A stretch of 64,000 nucleotides of DNA from the NCBI GenBank assembly GCA_000004985.1, contig GG738876.1. One strand, given 5' to 3'. Source of the stretch: Naegleria gruberi. Taxonomy: Eukaryota. Position 1 is the stretch's first letter, and each line of letters opens with the position of its first letter. Below, piece after piece: positions 19,020 to 53,953 of the stretch. The notes under the pieces were generated by a model. It did not search any database and was not told the DNA's origin. It saw nothing but the letters and a program-made list of their open reading frames with translations. The position numbers were made by a program, and so were the translations under genes.

Positions 19020-19640
19020 ACAGGCTCTTAACCTTGTGGTCGTGGGTTCGACCCCCAGTTTAAAGTAATGGCAAGACTACTTTTACCAACATTGGAAGGA
19101 GCAATTAATAGAATTCTTGCCCAGTTAATCTTTTCTGATCGTTTTTTGAGCTCTACGGTTTCCCACATAATTTAGGTTTCCAATGTAAATTAGAAAAATT
19201 AAAGAAAAATTAAAAACATTAGTCTGACTCCCAGATTTCACTCTCTGTTAGCTCATGCTCAGTTCTGCAATCTGACCATCCTACAGTGTGAAGGCTATGA
19301 TTTGCTCAGTTATCCTGCCTCAACCGGTTCACCTTTCATTAGGACCCTAGTTTCTCCTTATTCATGGGGAGGTACTATGGTCACACCGCTATTGGCGCAG
19401 ACAGAACATCGTCACCATATTGCTAACAGAGGAATGAGTCTGAAGAACCATCCCTTTGCCTGACGCTGTGGCAGAGAACCATCACAGCTACCTCCCTACA
19501 GTAGCCCAGCTTGTCTTTGTGGATAGATCTAGAGGTAGAAGAGTGGATCTGATCGTAAAAACCTGATTTGATGTGGTTCTCAAATAAAAAATATTTTAAC
19601 CTTATCATGATCAATGGATTATTTGATGACGTCATTTGGC
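19020..19640. other. Non-coding block with elevated GC, a tRNA-like B-box fragment and no ORF. It is a candidate ncRNA, SINE-like element or retroelement remnant.
   Basis: GGTTCGACCCCC at 19046-19057 is a Pol III B-box / T-arm consensus sitting in a partial tRNA-like sequence. That sequence cannot fold into a full cloverleaf. It is followed by roughly 550 bp that is clearly more GC-rich than the flanks, has no long ORF on either strand, and lies between two minus-strand genes. I could not match it to U1/U2/U4/U5/U6, RNase P or SRP consensus motifs by eye. Confidence 0.3.
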
Positions 19641-23905: not shown

Positions 23906-26404
23906 TTACAGATTTTGTTGAGTGTTAGCATAATTGGAGAGTTCTTCCTTTTGCTTTTCGCACAAATCAATTAATGCTTCAGTATCACGCTTATATTTTT
24001 CTTCCAGTTCTTCATTCTTCTTCTTGAGTCTTTGAATTTCTTCCCACATGTTTTTGAATTCTCTTTGGAATGTTTGAACAGTAGCTTCGTTTTTGCTTTC
24101 TGAAAGAGCCTTAATTTCTTGAAGCTTATTCATATCAGCAATAATTTCATTTGCTCTGATTTGAAGAGTATGCAAAGGTGTATAACCATAATATTCGTAT
24201 CCATTTGGATCCTTTGCATATCTAAGCCAATATGTGGACCATAACTGTATAGAACTATGTCTTAAATCTGGATATATTACATAGGTTGTATTATCAGGAT
24301 CATAGAAAGGATTAAGATAGTTGGTACCACAACCTTCATATTCAACAAGGACGTTTCTATTCAACAAGTATGTCCACATAGAATGAGTCTTTTCATAAAT
24401 CTTGTATTTGACTCTTTCTCTTTCATTATCGAAAATAAAGTTACCAAATCTACAAGAATACAAATTATCAAGGACGAAAATCAAGAAAAGTTCGTTAAAC
24501 TCAAATGCAGTTGGATGTTGACGCATCATTTGATAAACGCAATCAATAAATTGAACAAAAATAGGACCACGTTCATCAGTGTAGAAAGTTTGACGACTAC
24601 CGTGACCAATTCTCTTTTGGAACTGGTGACCAAATGCACACCATTCCTTTTCAATGAGAACAGCAAAACCTTCCATGGTTCTACAGTATGGATCTGCCAT
24701 AATTTGGAAGAGGCAAACAACTTGACTGGTTCTATCCCAACCATCAGAACAGTGAGTAAGTACAGATGTACGTTCTCTGAAAAATACATCAACACAAAAA
24801 TGGGCAGCTGTCAAAATTGAACGAATATGTTCTAACCATTGTGTGCTTTCAACCTTGCTATGCCAATTCAATTCAACACCTCCGAAATCGTGGCAAACAT
24901 CAGCCAATCTAGCAAAGGAATTTCTAACCACGTGAATATTTTCAATATTCATGAATCTAAGTTCGCAATTCTTATAATTCTTTTCATAACCAGCACCTTT
25001 AATGACACGATTAGCTTCAGCATTAGCTCTTGGACGCAAATCGACAATCATTAATCTTTGTTGAGTCTTTTCACTGGCTTGCATAATAGATTCAATAGTT
25101 CTATAATCACCAATATGCTTCTTTGTTATTTTACCAGTAAAATTAAGACCAATCATTGGTTGAGCACATCTGGTTAATGAAAGTTCAGTCTCAGGATCAT
25201 ACCAACTCAAAACTGGAATTCTGCCTCTCGATCTGAATTCTGCAGCAGCCTTAACTTCTTCATCAGATAAATTGTTTGGAACAAGGAAAAGACTTGGATA
25301 GGTGTCACAAATCTTGTAATTTTGATTCAAAGTACAAATTCTCCAGTTTTGTTTAGACATGTTAGAAGGTGGAGTTTTGATTTGTCGGTGAGAAGTATTT
25401 TGAGGTGTTACATTATTATTACTAAGAACTCCTTGTCTTGTATATTCCTTAACCAAATCGTACACTCTCCAGCCATCAACAGGTTCAGAAGATGGTGTTG
25501 GTAAAATACTTGGTATACCATTTGATGAAGATCCATTTGATGGACTTTCCACACCTGTTGGAGAAGTAGCTTCACCAATAGTATTAGTAGTAGGTGGAGG
25601 AATAGTAAGTCTATATTTGTAAGCAAAGAAATGTTCTGGATTTCTATCATCTCTAATTGTTCTGAAAATTCTTCCTCTGGTTCCTCTTGTTGGAACGAAT
25701 GCAAATTTCACATGTTGGAAATTTTTAGTGAAAATTTCAATGAGATAGGAATAGTCCTTAGTAGAATTTGTTTTACCTCCAATCTTTTCCAATTTAGAGA
25801 TGGTACATAGAGGAATATCACTTCCTTGGAATTGATGAGGAACATCATCATAGGTTGATTGTGTTGCAGGCTTGAAAATAAGTCTATAATTTGTAATGAA
25901 TAAAACACCTTGATGCCAAGCAACTCTCTGAGGTGAAGTATGTCCATTCCACTCAAACACCTGAGTATCCTTGTCGATAATTTCTTCACCAGGAAGAAGA
26001 GCAGGACTGAGAAGTACTTTGGACATTTTAACATCTTGACTCACAACGCTATTACTTTGTGTTGTTCTATTAGTTTCATAGTAATTGTTAATAATTGATG
26101 ATCCAATTATTGTATTTGATGTTCCATCATCGGTTGATGAATCGTTATTATTGGCCATGTTGCTATCACTTCTAATTGGTCGTAAATTTTCATGATGTTG
26201 TGGAAGGGTTGAAACAGATTCAGAGTGGTGAATACTAGTATTATTGTTATTGTTGTGCGTATTAGAGGTAGTACTTGATGAAAGTGGATGAATTTGTACG
26301 CCATCCTCTACGTCATCATCATTGACTGATGAATCATCTGTATTATCACCTGTTAGATTCTCGTTAACAGCCTGTTCGCTATTGGAAGCAAAAAATCTTC
26401 TCAT
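23906..26404 (-). CDS. Myotubularin-related phosphoinositide 3-phosphatase
   Basis: Single exon of 832 aa. It has a Ser/Asn-rich N-terminus, a GRAM/PH-like segment and the CX5R active site (VLTHCSDGWDRTSQV) of the myotubularin family. The SID/coiled-coil C-terminus is typical. Confidence 0.9.
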   Translation of the reverse strand: MRRFFASNSEQAVNENLTGDNTDDSSVNDDDVEDGVQIHPLSSSTTSNTHNNNNNTSIHHSESVSTLPQHHENLRPIRSDSNMANNNDSSTDDGTSNTIIGSSIINNYYETNRTTQSNSVVSQDVKMSKVLLSPALLPGEEIIDKDTQVFEWNGHTSPQRVAWHQGVLFITNYRLIFKPATQSTYDDVPHQFQGSDIPLCTISKLEKIGGKTNSTKDYSYLIEIFTKNFQHVKFAFVPTRGTRGRIFRTIRDDRNPEHFFAYKYRLTIPPPTTNTIGEATSPTGVESPSNGSSSNGIPSILPTPSSEPVDGWRVYDLVKEYTRQGVLSNNNVTPQNTSHRQIKTPPSNMSKQNWRICTLNQNYKICDTYPSLFLVPNNLSDEEVKAAAEFRSRGRIPVLSWYDPETELSLTRCAQPMIGLNFTGKITKKHIGDYRTIESIMQASEKTQQRLMIVDLRPRANAEANRVIKGAGYEKNYKNCELRFMNIENIHVVRNSFARLADVCHDFGGVELNWHSKVESTQWLEHIRSILTAAHFCVDVFFRERTSVLTHCSDGWDRTSQVVCLFQIMADPYCRTMEGFAVLIEKEWCAFGHQFQKRIGHGSRQTFYTDERGPIFVQFIDCVYQMMRQHPTAFEFNELFLIFVLDNLYSCRFGNFIFDNERERVKYKIYEKTHSMWTYLLNRNVLVEYEGCGTNYLNPFYDPDNTTYVIYPDLRHSSIQLWSTYWLRYAKDPNGYEYYGYTPLHTLQIRANEIIADMNKLQEIKALSESKNEATVQTFQREFKNMWEEIQRLKKKNEELEEKYKRDTEALIDLCEKQKEELSNYANTQQNL

Positions 26405-26844
26405 ATTTAAAGGTAATATTATATTATTATTATTATTTGTTTGAATATATTGTGATCAAATAGTTGATCCTCTACAATCGGCAACAATATGTTCCGTTAA
26501 TGAAAAAATAGTAAGAGCTTTGTTAGTAGCACTACTCAAAGAGTGATTCGAGAGAGAGATTGTAATCAAAAATGTGATGAAACACAGCAAAATTTATGTA
26601 TTAGAGAAGCAACAGCTGTGGTGAATATTTTTTCTCTTGAAAGTCCGTACAAGATTTTGTCAAACTTTTTTAACTCTTCACTTGGTTCATAAAGGAACAG
26701 TGGAGAATTATCTTGTGGGCAGTTCGTAAGGCCCTAAGAATCTAGAAAATGTTAAATATCAGCAGCTATTCCTCATTACAAACCTAATCTTCACTTCTTA
26801 GATTTTCATATTTATTTAAGGCTAAATTTCAACATTAACAAGAT

Positions 26845-26916
26845 TCCCGTGTAGTCCAATGGCTAGGATACCTGGCTTTCACCCAGGAGGTCCGGGTTCA
26901 ATTCCCGGCATGGGAG
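26845..26916 (+). tRNA. tRNA-Glu (anticodon TTC)
   Basis: A 72-nt cloverleaf: 7-bp acceptor stem (one G-U), anticodon loop CTTTCAC, T-loop GGTTCAATTCC, and a T-run (ATTTTT) within 12 nt downstream. The plus-strand track ORF 26859..27107 overlapping it is spurious. Confidence 0.9.
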
Positions 26917-26943
26917 AATCATTTTTGGATATGAACTTTGCAT

Positions 26944-27423
26944 TTACTTTATTTCAATATTTCGATCTTTATAGATTTTCTCTATCATTTCAATACACTC
27001 AGCAACAGTCTTTGACCATGCCTTTCCTGAATCCTCTTTCCAATATTTATATCCTTCAATTGTTTCATTGGCAGGCTTTTCAGTACAATGTCCAATTAAT
27101 TCAGTAATGTCCTGTTCAAAATATTCTCTTTCAAATGGTAAATGGTAAATTATAATGTTCTTTCCAGAAAAATTTAATCCATCAACTGTAATGTGAATTA
27201 TATCTTTTCCATTAATATGGTCTATTTTGTAAATAATTAATCGAGAGGATGTATCTTGAGGTCTGTGGTGATAAGACCAGATTTGCCCTTCTTTTAATTC
27301 TTTCAATTTGACAGATTCAGCCCTTGACAAGTTTCGAATAGTTGAATATTTTGAAGAAGCGGAAATACTGGTAAATGTCTTGGGAATGGATTGTGTGAGA
27401 ATAGAACGACGAAGTGAAAGCAT
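26944..27423 (-). CDS. Hypothetical small protein (159 aa) with an N-terminal mitochondrial-presequence-like segment
   Basis: ATG-initiated ORF. MLSLRRSILTQSIPKTFTSISASSKYS is basic, hydroxylated and amphipathic, like a matrix-targeting signal. It sits between tRNA-Glu and the 5S gene. Function unknown. Confidence 0.45.
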   Translation of the reverse strand: MLSLRRSILTQSIPKTFTSISASSKYSTIRNLSRAESVKLKELKEGQIWSYHHRPQDTSSRLIIYKIDHINGKDIIHITVDGLNFSGKNIIIYHLPFEREYFEQDITELIGHCTEKPANETIEGYKYWKEDSGKAWSKTVAECIEMIEKIYKDRNIEIK

Positions 27424-27527
27424 TTTTTGAACAGATTTTAGTCTTTAATTTTCAAATCAAAATGATTTTTCACATCACGAACAAACAGAATTAGTCAAGT
27501 TGATATTTCACAATTTAAGGCATTGAA

Positions 27528-27646
27528 TGGCTACGGCCATATCACGATGAATGCACCTCATCCCGTCCGATTTGAGAAGTTAAGCATCGTCGAGCCACAT
27601 CAGTACTGAGGTTGGAGACAACTTGGGAACCTGTGGTGCTGTAGTC
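27528..27646 (+). rRNA. 5S ribosomal RNA
   Basis: A 119-nt sequence GGCTACGGCCATATCAC...GGTTGGAGACAAC...GGTGCTGTAGTC aligns along its whole length to eukaryotic 5S rRNA (box A, box C, loop E region). It is immediately followed by a TTTTTGTTTTTT Pol III terminator. Confidence 0.9.
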
Positions 27647-27869
27647 TTTTTGTTTTTTAAAATTCTCTTTTTCTAAATCCAGTTTCCCACATTCTTTCCA
27701 AACAGCTTCATTGAGCAGCACTGCTCATCATAAATAATGATTAATTAAGATTCGCTACATGTTCAATATCAATAGTTAGAATTTATTAAAATACCACAAA
27801 CATTTTGTCATTCTTCACTTCACAACAAACAGAATAAATACTATGTTCCGTATGCAGTATCTCAAAACC

Positions 27870-28060
27870 ATCTTTCTCGGCCAATTGGCTTTGATCGAGT
27901 GAAGTATCTGTTCTTTTCAGTTTAATAGCTGAAAGCAGCCACGGGTTGCCTTACTATTAACTCAATTTTTTGTAGGGATCAGGGTTTGAGCTTAATTGCT
28001 CACTTTGATTTGGTTTCAATCAGACATTGCACAAACCGTCAGATTAGGAGCCACCTAACT
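27870..28060 (+). ncRNA. U2 spliceosomal snRNA
   Basis: The 5' end ATCTTTCTCGGCCAATTGGCTTTGATCGAGTGAAGTATCTGTTCTTTTCAGTTTAATAGCTGAAA matches the universally conserved U2 5' domain (U6-interacting region, branch-point-recognition sequence GUAGUA present as GAAGTA, stem-loop IIa). An Sm site AATTTTTTG lies at about 27962-27974. The 3' end is approximate. Confidence 0.8.
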
Positions 28061-28138
28061 CTTTTAAATAATTGAAAAATCATTGCTCAAAGACACAATC
28101 AGACCAAAATTGAGATTTGAAAATTTTATAAATGTGGG

Positions 28139-29749
28139 TTAGAATGTTAAATACTTATCAATTTTAGTGATCATTATTTTCATAGGATTGGAATTCTTGT
28201 ACGCGCCACATTGTTTAACAATGGAATTTATCAATTGTCTGAATCCATTCCTCTCCATTTCATACTTAAGCTTCTCCTCTCCAAGGGTTTTCTTTAGACT
28301 GTCCATGCTAGATTGGAAAATGGAAAATTTCACCTTTTTATCAGTCAATGAGTAACACTTGCATCTGGGATCAAACTCAACGACTTGACTTAAAATCTTT
28401 GTAAAAATTGTTCCATTATCACAAACTAGTTCCAAAGTTTTGCTAAATTCATCCTTTTCCAACATCTTTTCGAATAGCTCAGTTTTTTGAGAAAATATGA
28501 CAAGAAATTCTTCCAATAGCTCATTTTCTTTCTCAATCTGTAAGGATTTCGTAGTAAGAAAACAATCATAAATCTTTACAAATGATTCCAAGGCAATAGA
28601 TTTACAACTGGTAAGATTATTTTGCACATTTACAGATAAAAGCTCCATCATATATAATATATTGTGCTTTTTGAAAGGGGAGCCAACAGAATTGAGAAAT
28701 CTAATGATAAGCTTCAATAAATCTTCCAAACAATCATTCTTGTCAAAAAATTCCAAGTGTTTAAAATATACTGAAATCATATCTTTCACCACAATCCAAA
28801 TTAAAGTTGATTTTTGATAATTGTTTGGTATTGAATCGGCAAGTTTTTGAATTCTTTCAAAATCTCTCCTAACAAATATTGATTCAATGAAACCATATTC
28901 ACCAGCAAATAATCTCAGTAGGGTTTCTGATTTTTTAGTTTCGTCCAACCTGTCGTTATCAGTAATTGTATACCGTATAATCTTGTCAATTAAAGGGTCA
29001 TTCTTGTCCGCGAGTAGCTCAACAAATGCTAAAATCATACATAATCGTGTCATTCCAGTGGTTGTTAATTGAACATCCACAAACTTTCTATCAAATATTG
29101 CACGAATCAATTGAGAAATTCTTTGATTTTTCTCATTAGAATCTACACATCCATTCTTTGTAATATATTCGATTTGGTTTGGAAAATTAGATTTCAAAAC
29201 GTGATAACAATTCTCCATTATTCTTGAAGCATTCTTGGAATCTTGAGTCAAACTTGGAATTCTATCCAATCTGGAACGAAACCTTTCCAATTCAATTTCA
29301 GAATCATTTTCTCCATTGATCAAACTTTCAAAATAATGACACAGTCGAATATCTAGTTTAAAAAATCGAATAAATGTTTTTGCATCATTCATCATACTAA
29401 ATAATTTTCTAATTTTCTGCATATTTCCTTCCACCAAATCTAATCCATTATTCGAAACATTCCTCTCTGTTCCATAAATTACACAATATTCACAATTTTC
29501 TATAATCATGTGCCACATGTTTTTCATGACCAACGATAAATCATCATTCATCAAGATATCATAAAAAAGGTTCTTGTTGATTAACATGTAGTTTTGTAAT
29601 TCTTCAAATTGTTGGTAGAGTTCGATGGAATGGTAAAATCGATATGTGTTGGTTAGTGGTGTGGTCAATTCAAAGGGAGAGAGGTACCTAAAGATGCAAT
29701 AGCGTATTTCTGGAGGTAAATCCAGCAAGGTCATTGTATCTTCTTTCAT
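28139..29749 (-). CDS. F-box domain protein (536 aa)
   Basis: The N-terminal LLDLPPEIRYCIFRYLSPFEL is a canonical F-box (LPxEI...I..L). The rest is helical/leucine-rich without a second recognisable domain. Single exon. Confidence 0.7.
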   Translation of the reverse strand: MKEDTMTLLDLPPEIRYCIFRYLSPFELTTPLTNTYRFYHSIELYQQFEELQNYMLINKNLFYDILMNDDLSLVMKNMWHMIIENCEYCVIYGTERNVSNNGLDLVEGNMQKIRKLFSMMNDAKTFIRFFKLDIRLCHYFESLINGENDSEIELERFRSRLDRIPSLTQDSKNASRIMENCYHVLKSNFPNQIEYITKNGCVDSNEKNQRISQLIRAIFDRKFVDVQLTTTGMTRLCMILAFVELLADKNDPLIDKIIRYTITDNDRLDETKKSETLLRLFAGEYGFIESIFVRRDFERIQKLADSIPNNYQKSTLIWIVVKDMISVYFKHLEFFDKNDCLEDLLKLIIRFLNSVGSPFKKHNILYMMELLSVNVQNNLTSCKSIALESFVKIYDCFLTTKSLQIEKENELLEEFLVIFSQKTELFEKMLEKDEFSKTLELVCDNGTIFTKILSQVVEFDPRCKCYSLTDKKVKFSIFQSSMDSLKKTLGEEKLKYEMERNGFRQLINSIVKQCGAYKNSNPMKIMITKIDKYLTF

Positions 29750-29833: not shown

Positions 29834-32800
29834 TTACTGATTATATTCCAATAACTCATCTTGCAAAGTATATAATTGTTGAGCTAATTCTTCAATACTT
29901 GGTCTCTCCTTTGGATTGTGATCCCAACATCTTTTAATGAGCTTGGTCAACTCATACACAATAGCAAAATCAGCTGATTCATCCTCCATAAACATTTCAC
30001 ACCACTCCTCACACGAATCCAAAGATTCGAATGGTATAATTGGCCTTAAATTCTTTTCACAGACCATTCTAGATAACTTGTAAGGTGACATGTACTCTGG
30101 TTTAGTTTCCAATCCTAATTTTTCCAAAACTGAGGGAATTCCACTCATATACGGATCTCTCACTTCAAATAAGAGTTGCCACATGATTATTGACAGACTG
30201 TAAATATCGACAGCAGTTGCATTTTCTGGATCAATTGACTGAATATCATTCATTTCTGGACTCATGTAAAAAACTGATCCAATATTATTAGTAATTGAAT
30301 TTTTGGTTCCTTGTGATAATAATCTACTCAATCCAAAATCACAAACTTTACAATTTTCATTCGAATCTAATAGAATATTTTGTGGTTTCAAATCTCTATT
30401 TCAAAAAATTAAAAAATCTCAATTCAAAACTTGAACACACATACCTATGAATAATCTTTCTCGGTTTCAAATTGTGTAAATATTCCACACCATTCGAAAT
30501 GGAAATTAACATTTTAATCTTTTCCACAAGTGGAAGGGCCAATGTTTTGGATTCCAATTTTAAAATTACCTTATCCAAACTTTGTTCCAAACATTCCATG
30601 ACAATGTATCGTTTCGTTGGTGAGGTAGAAACTCCATAAAAATTGATAATATTTGGATGTCGGAGTTTGCTTAATAAAATTGCTTCCACTCTGAAATCTT
30701 CCTCTGAAATATTGACATTATTCAAATCAAAGACTTTGACAGCAACAATCATTCCAGACCACATGGTTTGATAGACACTCCCTACTCCGCCCTCACCCAA
30801 TCTTTTCATTGGTTTTTCCATTCCTAATTTTTGAAGTGGAATGATAAAATCATTTTCTTTGAGTTCCTCAGCAATTGGTTCCAAATGATACGAGTTGATA
30901 ATGAGTCTTTCATCCAATGCCAAGTCAACTTGAATAATCTTTCGTTGGGCTCTATTCTTCTTAATAAGTATGGAGCTGAAAAAGGTAATGGCCACAACGA
31001 GTGCAATGCAAAGGAATAGCACAGCAATGAAACTCACAATAAAGGCAATGATTTGTCCACCATCTTGACAATTATTTCCAGAATATCCAAAATTACATTC
31101 ACAATCTCCTGTAGTTTTGCAAACTCCTCTTCCATAACAAACATGTGGATCCTTTTCGCTGATTCCAGAACATGAACTGAGCTGGCACTCCTCTCCAATG
31201 AAACTTCCCTTACATGAGCACTTGTTTCTCGAGGTGCAAATTCCACGTTCGCTTCCTCCACACGAATCTCCAATTAGTTTGGAGAAACAAATTGCATTTT
31301 CACATTGGAAACCATAATAACCATCATTGCATCGACATGAATCAGGTTCACTACAGGTTCCATTATTATTGGAGCATACTTGAGAATTGTTTGCTGTAAT
31401 TCCATAACAAATTGGAATTTCACATTGACTGCCCGTGTATTTTTCTTGACATTGACACTTGTTTGGTGACACACAAGCACCATGGTTGTGACAAACTGAC
31501 AAGGTTTCATTATCAGGAATCCCAAAGCATACAGCCAAACATTCAGTTCTATTAGAATCTAATTGATAACCCTCATTACACATTGGAGTTAATCTCATAA
31601 TGGTATCGTACAATGCAAGGTAAATTGTGTTATCGCTAGTGACCTGAATATCTGAAAGGATGCCATCATGATTAACTGTTGTTCTAATTTTCCCTTTGGA
31701 AACAATTCTAAGCATATAATTAAGCGTGTCACCAATCACCAAGTCTCCATTACTAAGGAAGGAGACAGCTCTTGGGTAGGATAATTTAACTTGTAGAGGA
31801 TCAGTGCCAGAACTGAAACCTTCCTCTCCAGATCCAGCAATTGTAGAAATTTCATAATGATCATCTTTTTTAGTCAACTTTCTAATACGATGATTACTCG
31901 TGTCTGAAAAAACAATATCCTTAGTTATTGGATTTATGGCTAATCCAGTTGGTGATCTTAGATTTGCTAAAATACCAATGCTGCCATCACCTGAAAATCC
32001 AAACTTTCCAGTTCCAGCTATTGTTCGAATTATACCACTATTATCAACTAATCTTATTCGATTCGTATTCGATTCGGATATTACCAGTTCATTATTGGAT
32101 GTTTTAACCATTTTAGCTGGATAAACATTAGCATTATAAACACTCATTCCATCACCAATTCCTCCAACTGGGGTTAACAATAGAGTGTCCAACTTTCGTA
32201 TATTATTATTCTCTGTAAAGAAGAAACTTCCATCACTTACTATTGAGCAAACACCAAATGGAAATCCAATAGTATTGCCATCATCATTAGAAACCTTTGA
32301 ATAAATGAATCCAGTCCGTGAAACAAAACGAATCCTATTATTATACGAATCTGCAATTAAAAAACCATTGGAATGAACTGTTATCGATGTTGGATTGAAT
32401 AATTTGGCTGTTTTAGCCGTAATTCCATCTCCATTATATCCTGCCACAGTTGTCCCAGCCAAAGTACTAATTGTTCCTTCAGGAATCAAAAAACCTTGAG
32501 AATCTTGTTTCACATTTTGATATTTCACCTGGAGAATTCGATGATTTGATGAATCTATATGAAAAAAAATTGAACAAATTAGAATTGAATGAGACTTGAA
32601 TGAAATAACATACCAGCAATGTAAATATCATAAAAAAAGAATCCATTTCGTATAACTTCAATTCCAGAAGGTGAATTGAGCTCTGTTTGTCTTGGATTAT
32701 TTTCCACAATGGTAGAACCTGACGAACCCAATCCAACAAGTGTAGAAACTGTGGATGCATTGGTGTAGGGCACAATTCTAACTCTATGATTAAGGGTATC

Positions 32801-40482: not shown

Positions 40483-41629
40483 ATGGCTTTTCATGGTCAT
40501 GTAATATTAATATTGGATGATAGTTTTACGGAGGGAATTTATTCAAGCTGGATGACTTGTTTTAATTCAATGAAAATTCAACATGCTATTAAATCCTTTC
40601 AAACAATAGCCTTGTTTGATTCGGAAGTTATAAAAGATGATCAAAATGTTGTTAATCTTCTTCCTCAACAAGGAATTGCAACTTGTGTGAAGTATGTACA
40701 AATAATATTAATAATAATTTTAATATTAATAATTGAAATCATTCATAAACAGACCCTATTATAATTGTTTGATATTTGAAAATCATATTAAGCCAATAAT
40801 TGAAAAAGTGGTGGATGGTTATGATGGATGCTTGGCTATTTTATGTAAAGGTATGTTTATTAGTGTGAGTTGTGGGAGATATTCTAATTGTATTAGGCGA
40901 TAGGAAACATAGGTTCTTGTATGTAATTAGCTCATTCACTTCCATTAATTCAAAAATAGAGGAGAAAATGACTTGGTATTTAAAAGTTTTGACTCTTTAA
41001 TTGAAATCTTGAAAAAGAGAAAAAAAGATTTTACACTAGGAATGGAATTGTATGCTATTTATGGAGATGAATTATATGATTCTTCTAAAAAATGGAATAG
41101 TTCTGATAGATTGATTAAAATAAGGGAATTTAGAGAAAATCCTGGCCACTTGAATTTATTGAATTGTGATAGAAAATCTGTAAACAATATTGAGGAAATT
41201 TGTAAGGAATTAGAGAATGCCTGTTTAAATAATCTAGCCTATATAACAGCATGTTCACTGACTAGCAGACGTTTAATATACGGATGTAGACTTTTTGTGG
41301 AACAGATAGAAGACAATTCTGTGAAAAAGAGCATGTTTGAAATATTTGATATACCAATTAGTGATCATCAAGAGGATAGACATTACATTAAATTACAAAG
41401 GTATCAAAAATGTCTCTGGGTTATTGCTCACACCATCGGGCGCAGGGAAAAAGAGAATATATCTTATATACCATACCGAGACTCAAAGCTTACCAGACTC
41501 ATGACGAACTACCTTGGTGGAAATTCATATTCAGCAATGATATTCGATAATTTTGAGGATATTAGGATTCTAAAGATGTTTGGTTCCATTAAAAACAATG
41601 CTTGCATCAACAAGAACTCTGATATTTGA
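40483..41629 (+). CDS. Degenerate kinesin-like motor-domain protein lacking catalytic motifs (pseudo-kinesin or pseudogene)
   Basis: Approximate structure join(40483..40691, 40753..40850, 40965..41629). The last intron needs a weak GAG acceptor, because the obvious TAG acceptor gives a stop after 12 codons. The C-terminal part keeps the kinesin neck-linker/alpha6 signature [21 protein letters not shown] and the overall motor order. The catalytic motifs are not conserved: the P-loop GQTGSGKT reads GCLAILCKG, switch I SSRSH reads SLTSRR, and switch II DLAGSE reads DIPISD. There is no stalk or tail. Confidence 0.4.
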
Positions 41630-53879: not shown

Positions 53880-53953
53880 TACGCCGTAAGGGAGTCGAAC
53901 CCTTGACCTTCAGCGTGTAAAGCTGACGATCTAACCAACTGATCTAACGGCGC
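53880..53953 (-). tRNA. tRNA-Val (anticodon TAC)
   Basis: The reverse complement folds as a 74-nt cloverleaf: acceptor GCGCCGT/ACGGCGT (1 G-U), D-loop AGTTGGTTAG, anticodon stem TCAGC/GCTGA with loop TTTACAC, T-arm AAGGG-TTCGACT-CCCTT. There is a T-run immediately 3' on the minus strand. Confidence 0.85.

Follow-up and report, generated by a model that had tools for sequence, protein, structure and literature searches.

The window, by which we mean the whole 64,000-nucleotide stretch of Naegleria gruberi DNA that was analyzed, contains within 1.2 kb of nuclear genome intact genes for tRNA-Glu, 5S rRNA, and U2 snRNA, all on the plus strand (Table 1). An initial annotation, made from the sequence alone, had named these three genes, and its identities, coordinates, and strands were exact. 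In the Rfam search that it had proposed as a check, each gene scored far above its threshold, and ARAGORN also called the tRNA. Gathering thresholds were applied for the main Rfam calls, E ≤ 1 for a scan of the whole window, and permissive settings for a scan of positions 26400–28200.

Table 1. Features of the small-RNA gene cluster and other RNA genes of the 64-kb window
Feature	Position	Strand	Remarks
SRP RNA gene	19212–19509	−	Whole-window Rfam scan, E ≤ 1
10-mer TCTTCACTTC	26788–26797	+	−57 to −48 of tRNA-Glu; again at −58 to −49 of U2
tRNA-Glu gene (anticodon UUC)	26845–26916	+	Rfam RF00005, 67 bits (threshold 29); ARAGORN tRNA-Glu(ttc)
159-aa protein gene	26944–27423	−	Open reading frame; convergent with tRNA-Glu, divergent from 5S
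Upstream element, copy 1, ATTTTTCACATCACGAACAAACAGAAT	27465–27491	+	37 nt from its end to the 5S start; in the 105-nt divergent spacer
5S rRNA gene, full length	27529–27647	+	Rfam RF00001, 105.4 bits (threshold 38), model positions 1–120
Inverted repeat GAGCAG-CA-CTGCTC	27713–27726	none	5S–U2 spacer
Upstream element, copy 2, ATTCTTCACTTCAC-AACAAACAGAAT	27810–27835	+	Ends 34 nt before A27870 of U2
U2 snRNA gene, full length	27868–28059	+	Rfam RF00004, 107.6 bits (threshold 46), model positions 1–192
tRNA-Val(UAC) gene	53880–53953	−	Whole-window Rfam scan, E ≤ 1

The minus-strand reading frame of 159 aa that the annotation had placed between the tRNA and 5S genes is also present. Its stop codon lies 27 nt from the 3' end of the tRNA, and its ATG is separated from the 5S gene by a divergent spacer of 105 nt. 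The gap from the 5S gene to the probable 5' end of U2 (A27870) is 222 nt, and a further 79 nt separate U2 from the stop codon of the following minus-strand gene. Each of the three RNA genes has its own T-run directly downstream. The window has ~33% G+C, its open reading frames are long, and its introns are few.

Elsewhere in the window, the Rfam scan at E ≤ 1 found one SRP RNA gene and one tRNA-Val gene; it gave no match to 18S or 28S rRNA and no second 5S or U2, and the permissive scan of 26400–28200 added no credible RNA gene. With one 5S gene and no 18S/28S match in 64 kb, the 5S gene is solitary here and belongs neither to an rDNA unit nor to a tandem array, just as the annotation had it. 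The significance that it attached to this point was not upheld. It had compared the locus with amoebozoa, in some of which 5S is linked to extrachromosomal rDNA, and had taken a chromosomal 5S gene as telling; Naegleria, however, belongs to the Heterolobosea (Discoba) and not to the amoebozoa. The extrachromosomal rDNA plasmid of Naegleria encodes single 18S, 5.8S, and 28S genes only (PMC12482156), so a chromosomal 5S gene is expected in this genus and hence is not informative.

Structure of the RNA genes and the 159-aa protein gene

The interior of the tRNA-Glu gene, which encodes a cytosolic tRNA, contains, by sequence, an A-box-like TAGTCCAATGG and a B-box-like GGTTCAATTCC, and the T5 run downstream of it (26922–26926) is a putative Pol III terminator. 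The 5S gene matches the whole three-way-junction structure and is followed directly by T4-G-T6 (TTTTGTTTTTT, 27648–27658), a Pol III terminator. A scan with a 5S 21-mer reached 14 contigs, each with a single 5S gene and with neither U2 nor a tRNA; one of them (L010) alone carries a Naegleria 5S, identical to that of the window at 118 of 119 positions, and the remaining 13, which come from other eukaryotes and have ~75% 5S identity, were used for covariation only. A further copy, on the contig L020, is 100% identical to the 5S gene of the window. In an alignment of 10 dispersed copies, compensatory changes were present in 18 of 39 base pairs, indicating that the dispersed 5S genes are under structural selection. 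The internal region appears to be kept across dispersed copies whose upstream flanks are unrelated, which is consistent with an internal promoter.

The 5' end of U2 is likely A27870 (AUCUUUCUCGGCC...). In the Rfam alignment, stem-loops I, IIa, IIb, III, and IV are all present, and the Sm site is AAUUUUUUG (27964–27972). Within the Sm site lies a T6 run (27966–27971) that would terminate Pol III, and Pol II is favored for this reason. U2 would most likely be transcribed by Pol II from an upstream element, a choice of polymerase that comes solely from the internal T6 run. A T4 run at 28062–28065, 2 nt past the 3' end of U2, is unremarkable given a G+C content of 33%.

The branch-point box of this U2 (27901–27906) reads GAAGUA in place of the Rfam consensus GUAGUA, with A27902 replacing U and five of the six positions kept. 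To our knowledge, the box is GUAGUA in the U2 of nearly all eukaryotes, and A27902 stands at the site of the near-universal U, psi34 in human. For a branch-site test, 18 candidate short introns were mined from the window; they include one clear intron of 49 nt (30396–30444), the removal of which restores the HRD motif of a kinase gene. The candidate branch sites in these 18 introns resemble YTRAY, in which the purine would be a partner for U but not for A. When the pairing models GUAGUA and GAAGUA were applied to the same 18 candidates, neither scored above shuffles. Literature searches gave no specific report on snRNA genes of Naegleria or on GUAGUA.

These features bear on whether the U2 gene of the window is the functional one. 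That it is a variant or inactive paralogue, with the functional U2 located elsewhere, would account for an A at a near-universal U position of the Rfam alignment and for YTRAY-like sites that carry a purine suited to U. We consider this improbable, because the remaining gene is full length and very high scoring, with an intact Sm site and every stem-loop in place, and because the branch-site test equaled shuffles under either model. Moreover, branch-site pairing at the U2 position in question is degenerate in many eukaryotes, and the U2 branch-point boxes of other Discoba are divergent. If GAAGUA is the sole version of U2 in Naegleria, it would be a notable departure in a core spliceosomal RNA.

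The 159-aa protein is 100% identical to an N. gruberi predicted protein, and the product of a neighboring gene, an 832-aa myotubularin-related protein, is likewise 100% identical to an N. gruberi entry. A word-indexed search had returned one match for the 159-aa reading frame, as if it were an orphan or spurious; this was overturned by an exhaustive HMMER search, which yielded 482 homologues (22 below 1e-10) covering residues ~41–152. Most of the homologues are 110–160 aa long and have signal-peptide-like N-termini. Pfam holds no model for the family, and the family profile matches the uncharacterized Pseudomonas protein PA1645 (PDB 2xu8, E = 1e-5). With the alignment, AlphaFold2 reached a pLDDT of 85 and predicted the first 40 residues to be disordered and basic, like a targeting peptide; the single-sequence model was poor. 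A Foldseek search with the AlphaFold2 model gave no significant PDB match. N. gruberi has at least one paralogue (XP_002675865). These results indicate that the gene is real, belongs to a widespread, uncharacterized family of small proteins, and is unrelated to the RNA genes.

Related loci and comparable arrangements

For comparison, the locus around the myotubularin orthologue, with 10-kb flanks, was taken from N. fowleri (L001), N. lovaniensis (L004), and Willaertia magna (L005). In both N. fowleri and N. lovaniensis, the same divergent slot upstream of the myotubularin ATG is occupied by a tRNA-Pro(UGG) gene that is unrelated to tRNA-Glu; it lies 268 bp from the ATG in N. fowleri and 245 bp in N. 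lovaniensis, and the tRNA of the window lies at 441 bp. Neither of these loci has a 5S or U2 gene within 10 kb, and the W. magna locus has no tRNA, 5S, or U2. A single intergenic slot is thus filled by tRNA-Glu in N. gruberi and by tRNA-Pro in N. fowleri and N. lovaniensis, which illustrates the free movement of small-RNA genes.

Metagenomes were scanned for a 5S motif followed by U2 motifs at the observed distance ±15 nt, and this linked pattern gave 0 matches; U2 and 5S patterns gave 0 matches in the genome-contig and viral-contig collections. Seven ENA contigs (L020–L026) were reached by using a spurious 59-aa reading frame antisense to 5S as a protein query. The downstream flank of L020 differs from that of the window, and no U2 is present in its 2.4 kb. 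Five of the contigs (L022–L026) come from a second Naegleria-like species, and each has a solitary 5S gene, with ~92% 5S identity. The remaining one, L021, carries, within 1354 bp, tRNA-Glu(UUC), tRNA-Met, 5S, a second tRNA-Glu(UUC), and a partial tRNA; both of its tRNA-Glu genes are identical to that of the window, with unrelated flanks. U2 is absent from the contigs of all eight further Naegleria-like 5S loci (L010 and L020–L026), at which 5S is solitary or accompanied by tRNAs.

A conserved 5S–U2 unit was rejected, given the absence of linked metagenome matches, the syntenic loci without the pair, and the eight 5S loci without U2. These comparisons show that the 5S–U2 adjacency is locus-specific and is neither a repeat unit nor a conserved syntenic block. 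The 5S genes of the Naegleria lineage are dispersed singletons with unrelated flanks, and small-RNA genes in Naegleria tend to share short intergenic gaps, sometimes several together. Dispersed 5S genes or mixed Pol III clusters are found in Neurospora and S. pombe, and the tRNA arrays of Entamoeba contain 5S. In these systems, as here, 5S genes are solitary, have unrelated flanks, and sometimes stand beside tRNA genes, and we see no essential difference from the Naegleria locus. The locus is best classed with this organization of dispersed 5S genes and mixed Pol III clusters, which many microbial eukaryotes share.

Several systems with linked small-RNA genes offer partial likenesses. [quoted passage not shown] Diplonema resembles the present locus in that 5S and U2 are adjacent in a member of Discoba, in the same orientation, with 5S unlinked to the large rRNA genes. 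Given this gene pair and its orientation, the locus might be regarded as a degenerate or single copy of such a tandem unit. This is very improbable and largely refuted: in contrast to Diplonema and Euglena, the Naegleria locus is present once in 64 kb without tandem repetition, has no SL RNA gene, has a protein gene interleaved, and is not conserved between species, and both the metagenome scan and the eight other 5S loci speak against such a unit.

In animals such as fishes and turtles, 5S rDNA is co-located with U2 (or U1/U5) snRNA genes (PMC7197720, PMC3464664), and the physical linkage of 5S and U2 is common to those genomes and to the window. The animal genes, however, are multigene tandem families, often forming one repeat unit, whereas the 5S genes of Naegleria are dispersed singletons, and among the known Naegleria copies only that of the window adjoins U2. 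In trypanosomatids, the snRNA, U3, and 7SL genes depend on a divergent upstream tRNA gene at 93–105 bp, which supplies A and B boxes (PMC2784804). The likeness lies in the presence of tRNA and snRNA genes within one small cluster in a discobid; unlike the trypanosomatid arrangement, tRNA-Glu has the same orientation as U2 and ends 953 bp before it, with the protein gene and 5S between them. No tRNA was found by Rfam or ARAGORN upstream of the SRP RNA gene of the window.

Sequences shared upstream of the RNA genes

Upstream of the 5S and U2 genes lie two copies of one element (Table 1), which are identical at 24 of 27 positions in a local alignment. Their Smith-Waterman score of 37 was above all 1000 of 1000 shuffles and all 993 of 993 random pairs of window segments. 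The similarity is confined to 26–27 nt, with no extension on either flank. Within it, the exact 12-mer AACAAACAGAAT occurs only twice in the 64 kb (27480–27491 and 27824–27835); when 100-mers were drawn at random from the window, the probability of an exact run of ≥12 nt with offsets agreeing to within 3 nt was 1.1e-4. A TATA-like AATAAATA directly follows copy 2. Copy 1 is also 42–68 nt upstream of the 159-aa gene, which is divergent from 5S, and might instead serve that gene.

A 10-mer is shared by tRNA-Glu and U2, again at similar positions (Table 1); among random pairs of window 100-mers, exact runs of ≥10 nt whose offsets agree to within 1 nt have a probability of 8.5e-4. TTCAC(W)TC is found near −55 upstream of all three RNA genes. 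Among 17 small-RNA genes of Naegleria and Naegleria-like species, seven have [TC]CAC starting at −59 to −50. The upstream motifs were chosen post hoc, and the independent set consists of the 14 genes that had not suggested the motif; four of these (three 5S and one tRNA-Glu) carry it, giving P = 0.013 against an empirical background of 0.0695 in what is a small set. The SRP RNA gene has CCACATCAA somewhat further upstream, at −67.

No other Naegleria-like 5S gene has the long element upstream, and neither this element nor the exact 12-mer occurs in any of 26 related loci. The absence of the long element from the other 5S genes indicates that it is not required for 5S transcription in general. 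Another sequence, TCTTCACTT, has three of its copies within 1.15 kb of the cluster and is enriched in the window (8 occurrences versus 1.45 expected); it was dropped as a general marker, its other copies being scattered in coding or CT-rich contexts.

Short conserved motifs upstream of small non-coding RNA genes, such as the plant USE and the metazoan PSE, serve genes of different polymerases. The Dictyostelium DUSE lies ~60 nt upstream of non-coding RNA genes of both Pol II and Pol III (PMC7919456). The Naegleria sequences are like these motifs in being short and at a fixed distance (~−55 to −60) upstream of small-RNA genes; the candidate, TTCACWTC ... AACAAACAGAAT, differs from them in sequence and is found at three neighboring genes, with weak traces elsewhere. 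The near-equal distance to unrelated gene starts favors a proximal promoter element over neutral duplication. We therefore tentatively suggest, at somewhat less than even odds, that the sequences shared at matching distances may be a counterpart of PSE, USE, or DUSE in the proximal promoter, a suggestion supported by one locus together with a weak positional signal elsewhere.

Interpretation of the cluster

We read the locus, with a probability of about 0.7, as three intact, independently transcribed small-RNA genes that lie side by side through ordinary, locus-specific juxtaposition and are interleaved with a protein gene. The tRNA-Glu and 5S genes would be Pol III genes with internal promoters, and U2 would be a Pol II snRNA gene with the upstream element as its driver; the shared element may set U2 initiation and boost the neighboring Pol III genes. 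The cluster as such adds little, since dispersed chromosomal 5S genes are expected and since many eukaryotes are known to have small-RNA clusters and 5S-snRNA linkages.

The initial annotation had raised the possibility of an expression island sharing chromatin or upstream elements. The upstream part of this proposal found some support in the sequences shared at matching distances, and the island itself was weakened by the lack of conservation of the cluster. In its full form, the proposal would be a co-regulated expression unit in which a shared PSE/DUSE-like element, perhaps with open chromatin, is needed by each of the three genes and selection favors their adjacency. The element and the 10-mer at matching distances from three unrelated genes, the weak TCAC enrichment at ~−55 in other Naegleria-like small-RNA genes, and the existence of a second dense Pol III cluster on L021 all point in this direction. 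We nevertheless regard such a unit as unlikely, because neither N. fowleri nor N. lovaniensis shares the arrangement, because other 5S copies, including the identical one on L020, have no U2 neighbor, and because no other 5S gene has the long element upstream. The same shared sequences could instead lack function and have arisen when neighboring spacers underwent local duplication or gene conversion, as might be suspected from an exact 12-mer confined to two neighboring sites in 64 kb and absent from all 26 related loci and from the three occurrences of TCTTCACTT near the cluster. Neutrality, however, does not predict near-identical distances (34 versus 37 nt; −57 versus −58) from unrelated 5' ends, and the similarity stops at 26–27 nt on both sides; a duplication origin is thus rather unlikely.

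Beyond the juxtaposition of independent genes, a broader reading takes in both the upstream sequences and the branch-point box: Naegleria, and perhaps Heterolobosea, might use a common external element for small-RNA genes of several polymerase classes and have GAAGUA in its sole or main U2. On the basis of the sequences at hand, we hold this to be doubtful. The element so conceived would join a TTCAC(W)TC box at ~−55 to a AACAAACAGAAT box ending at ~−35, and it would cover U2 snRNA together with a part of the 5S rRNA and tRNA genes. If true, it would be a lineage-specific counterpart of the Dictyostelium DUSE or the plant USE, and 5S and tRNA genes would gain an upstream dependence besides their internal promoters. 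We know of no work on the promoters of small-RNA genes in Heterolobosea, for which the locus supplies a concrete candidate element of 26–27 nt at a fixed distance.

The annotation had also drawn attention to a palindrome between the 5S and U2 genes. The inverted repeat is indeed there (Table 1), as one of 32 equivalent 6+2+6 inverted repeats in the window, or about one per 2 kb. Its occurrence is thus at chance level and uninformative, and we rejected it as a regulatory site.

The tRNA gene upstream of the myotubularin gene

Comparison of the myotubularin loci revealed that the divergent slot upstream of this gene is occupied by tRNA-Glu(UUC) in N. gruberi. In N. fowleri and N. lovaniensis the slot carries tRNA-Pro(UGG), to which the N. 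gruberi tRNA is unrelated. The position of the tRNA is kept across the three Naegleria species, but not its identity.

Features of the window and of related contigs
Feature	Sequence	Position	Strand	Remarks
tRNA-Glu(UUC)	window	26845-26916	+	divergent slot
tRNA-Pro(UGG)	N. fowleri, L001	9662-9733	-	same divergent slot
tRNA-Pro(UGG)	N. lovaniensis, L004	9685-9756	-	same divergent slot
Pol III genes	metagenomic Naegleria contig, L021	1-1354		tRNA-Glu(UUC), tRNA-Met, 5S, tRNA-Glu(UUC), partial tRNA
159-aa gene	window	26944-27423	-	"predicted protein"
536-aa ORF	window	28139-29749	-	adjoins U2
49-nt intron	window	30396-30444	-	GTATGT...TAG
SRP (7SL) RNA	window	19212-19509	-	Rfam Metazoa_SRP, 98 bits
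tRNA-Val(UAC)	window	53880-53953	-	69.9 bits, T5 terminator
SNOR75-like match	window	40594-40673	-	26 bits vs 50, E=0.88

A few kb past the myotubularin 3' end, on the opposite side from the tRNA slot, the N. fowleri locus carries neighboring genes whose products have reverse transcriptase/RNase H and endonuclease domains (L001 16681-20767), a non-LTR retrotransposon; gene order on this side is unlike that of N. lovaniensis.

5S and U2 RNA genes

The metagenomic Naegleria contig packs five Pol III genes into 1.35 kb, and its 5S gene carries a 2-nt insertion (CACCCCTCGTCC versus CATCCCGTCC). At least 11 contigs from one metagenome (L006-L009 and L011-L018; VFQM.../VFQO...) have one dispersed eukaryotic 5S gene each; these share the 21-mer GTCCGATTTGAGAAGTTAAGC with Naegleria 5S, at an overall identity of only ~75%.

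The branch-point recognition box of the window U2 (27901-27906) reads GAAGUA, with A27902 as the variant base; to our knowledge, this box is GUAGUA in nearly all eukaryotes. A27902 is at the position of human psi34, which pairs beside the branch adenosine.

Protein genes near the RNA cluster

Orphan status of the 159-aa protein was rejected because it belongs to a large family of small proteins, mostly with a signal peptide and with a PA1645/2xu8-like profile, for which Pfam has no model; XP_002675865 is a paralogue. The 40-residue N-terminus of the Naegleria protein is basic and disordered, much like an organelle-targeting peptide, which makes a bacterial origin possible.

The N-terminus of the 536-aa ORF (LLDLPPEIRYCIFRYLSPFEL) looks F-box-like, and a Pfam search with this ORF gave no match. 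Removal of the 49-nt intron joined ORFs 30396-32528 and 29834-30391 into a single NHL/EGF receptor-like kinase and restored its HRDLKPQN motif.

Other RNA genes and recurrence of TCTTCACTT

The SRP RNA gene is followed by T5 runs, has CCACATCAA at -67, and shows no synteny in N. fowleri or N. lovaniensis. The TCAC motif was absent upstream of tRNA-Val(UAC). The sub-threshold match to plant C/D snoRNA SNOR75 may be a snoRNA or noise.

TCTTCACTT was commoner than chance in the window, with eight sites (3549, 26675, 26788, 27812, 37774, 46997, 48249, and 59788) against 1.45 expected. Three of the eight are no more than 1.15 kb from the RNA cluster, and the remaining five are dispersed, in coding or CT-rich sequence.
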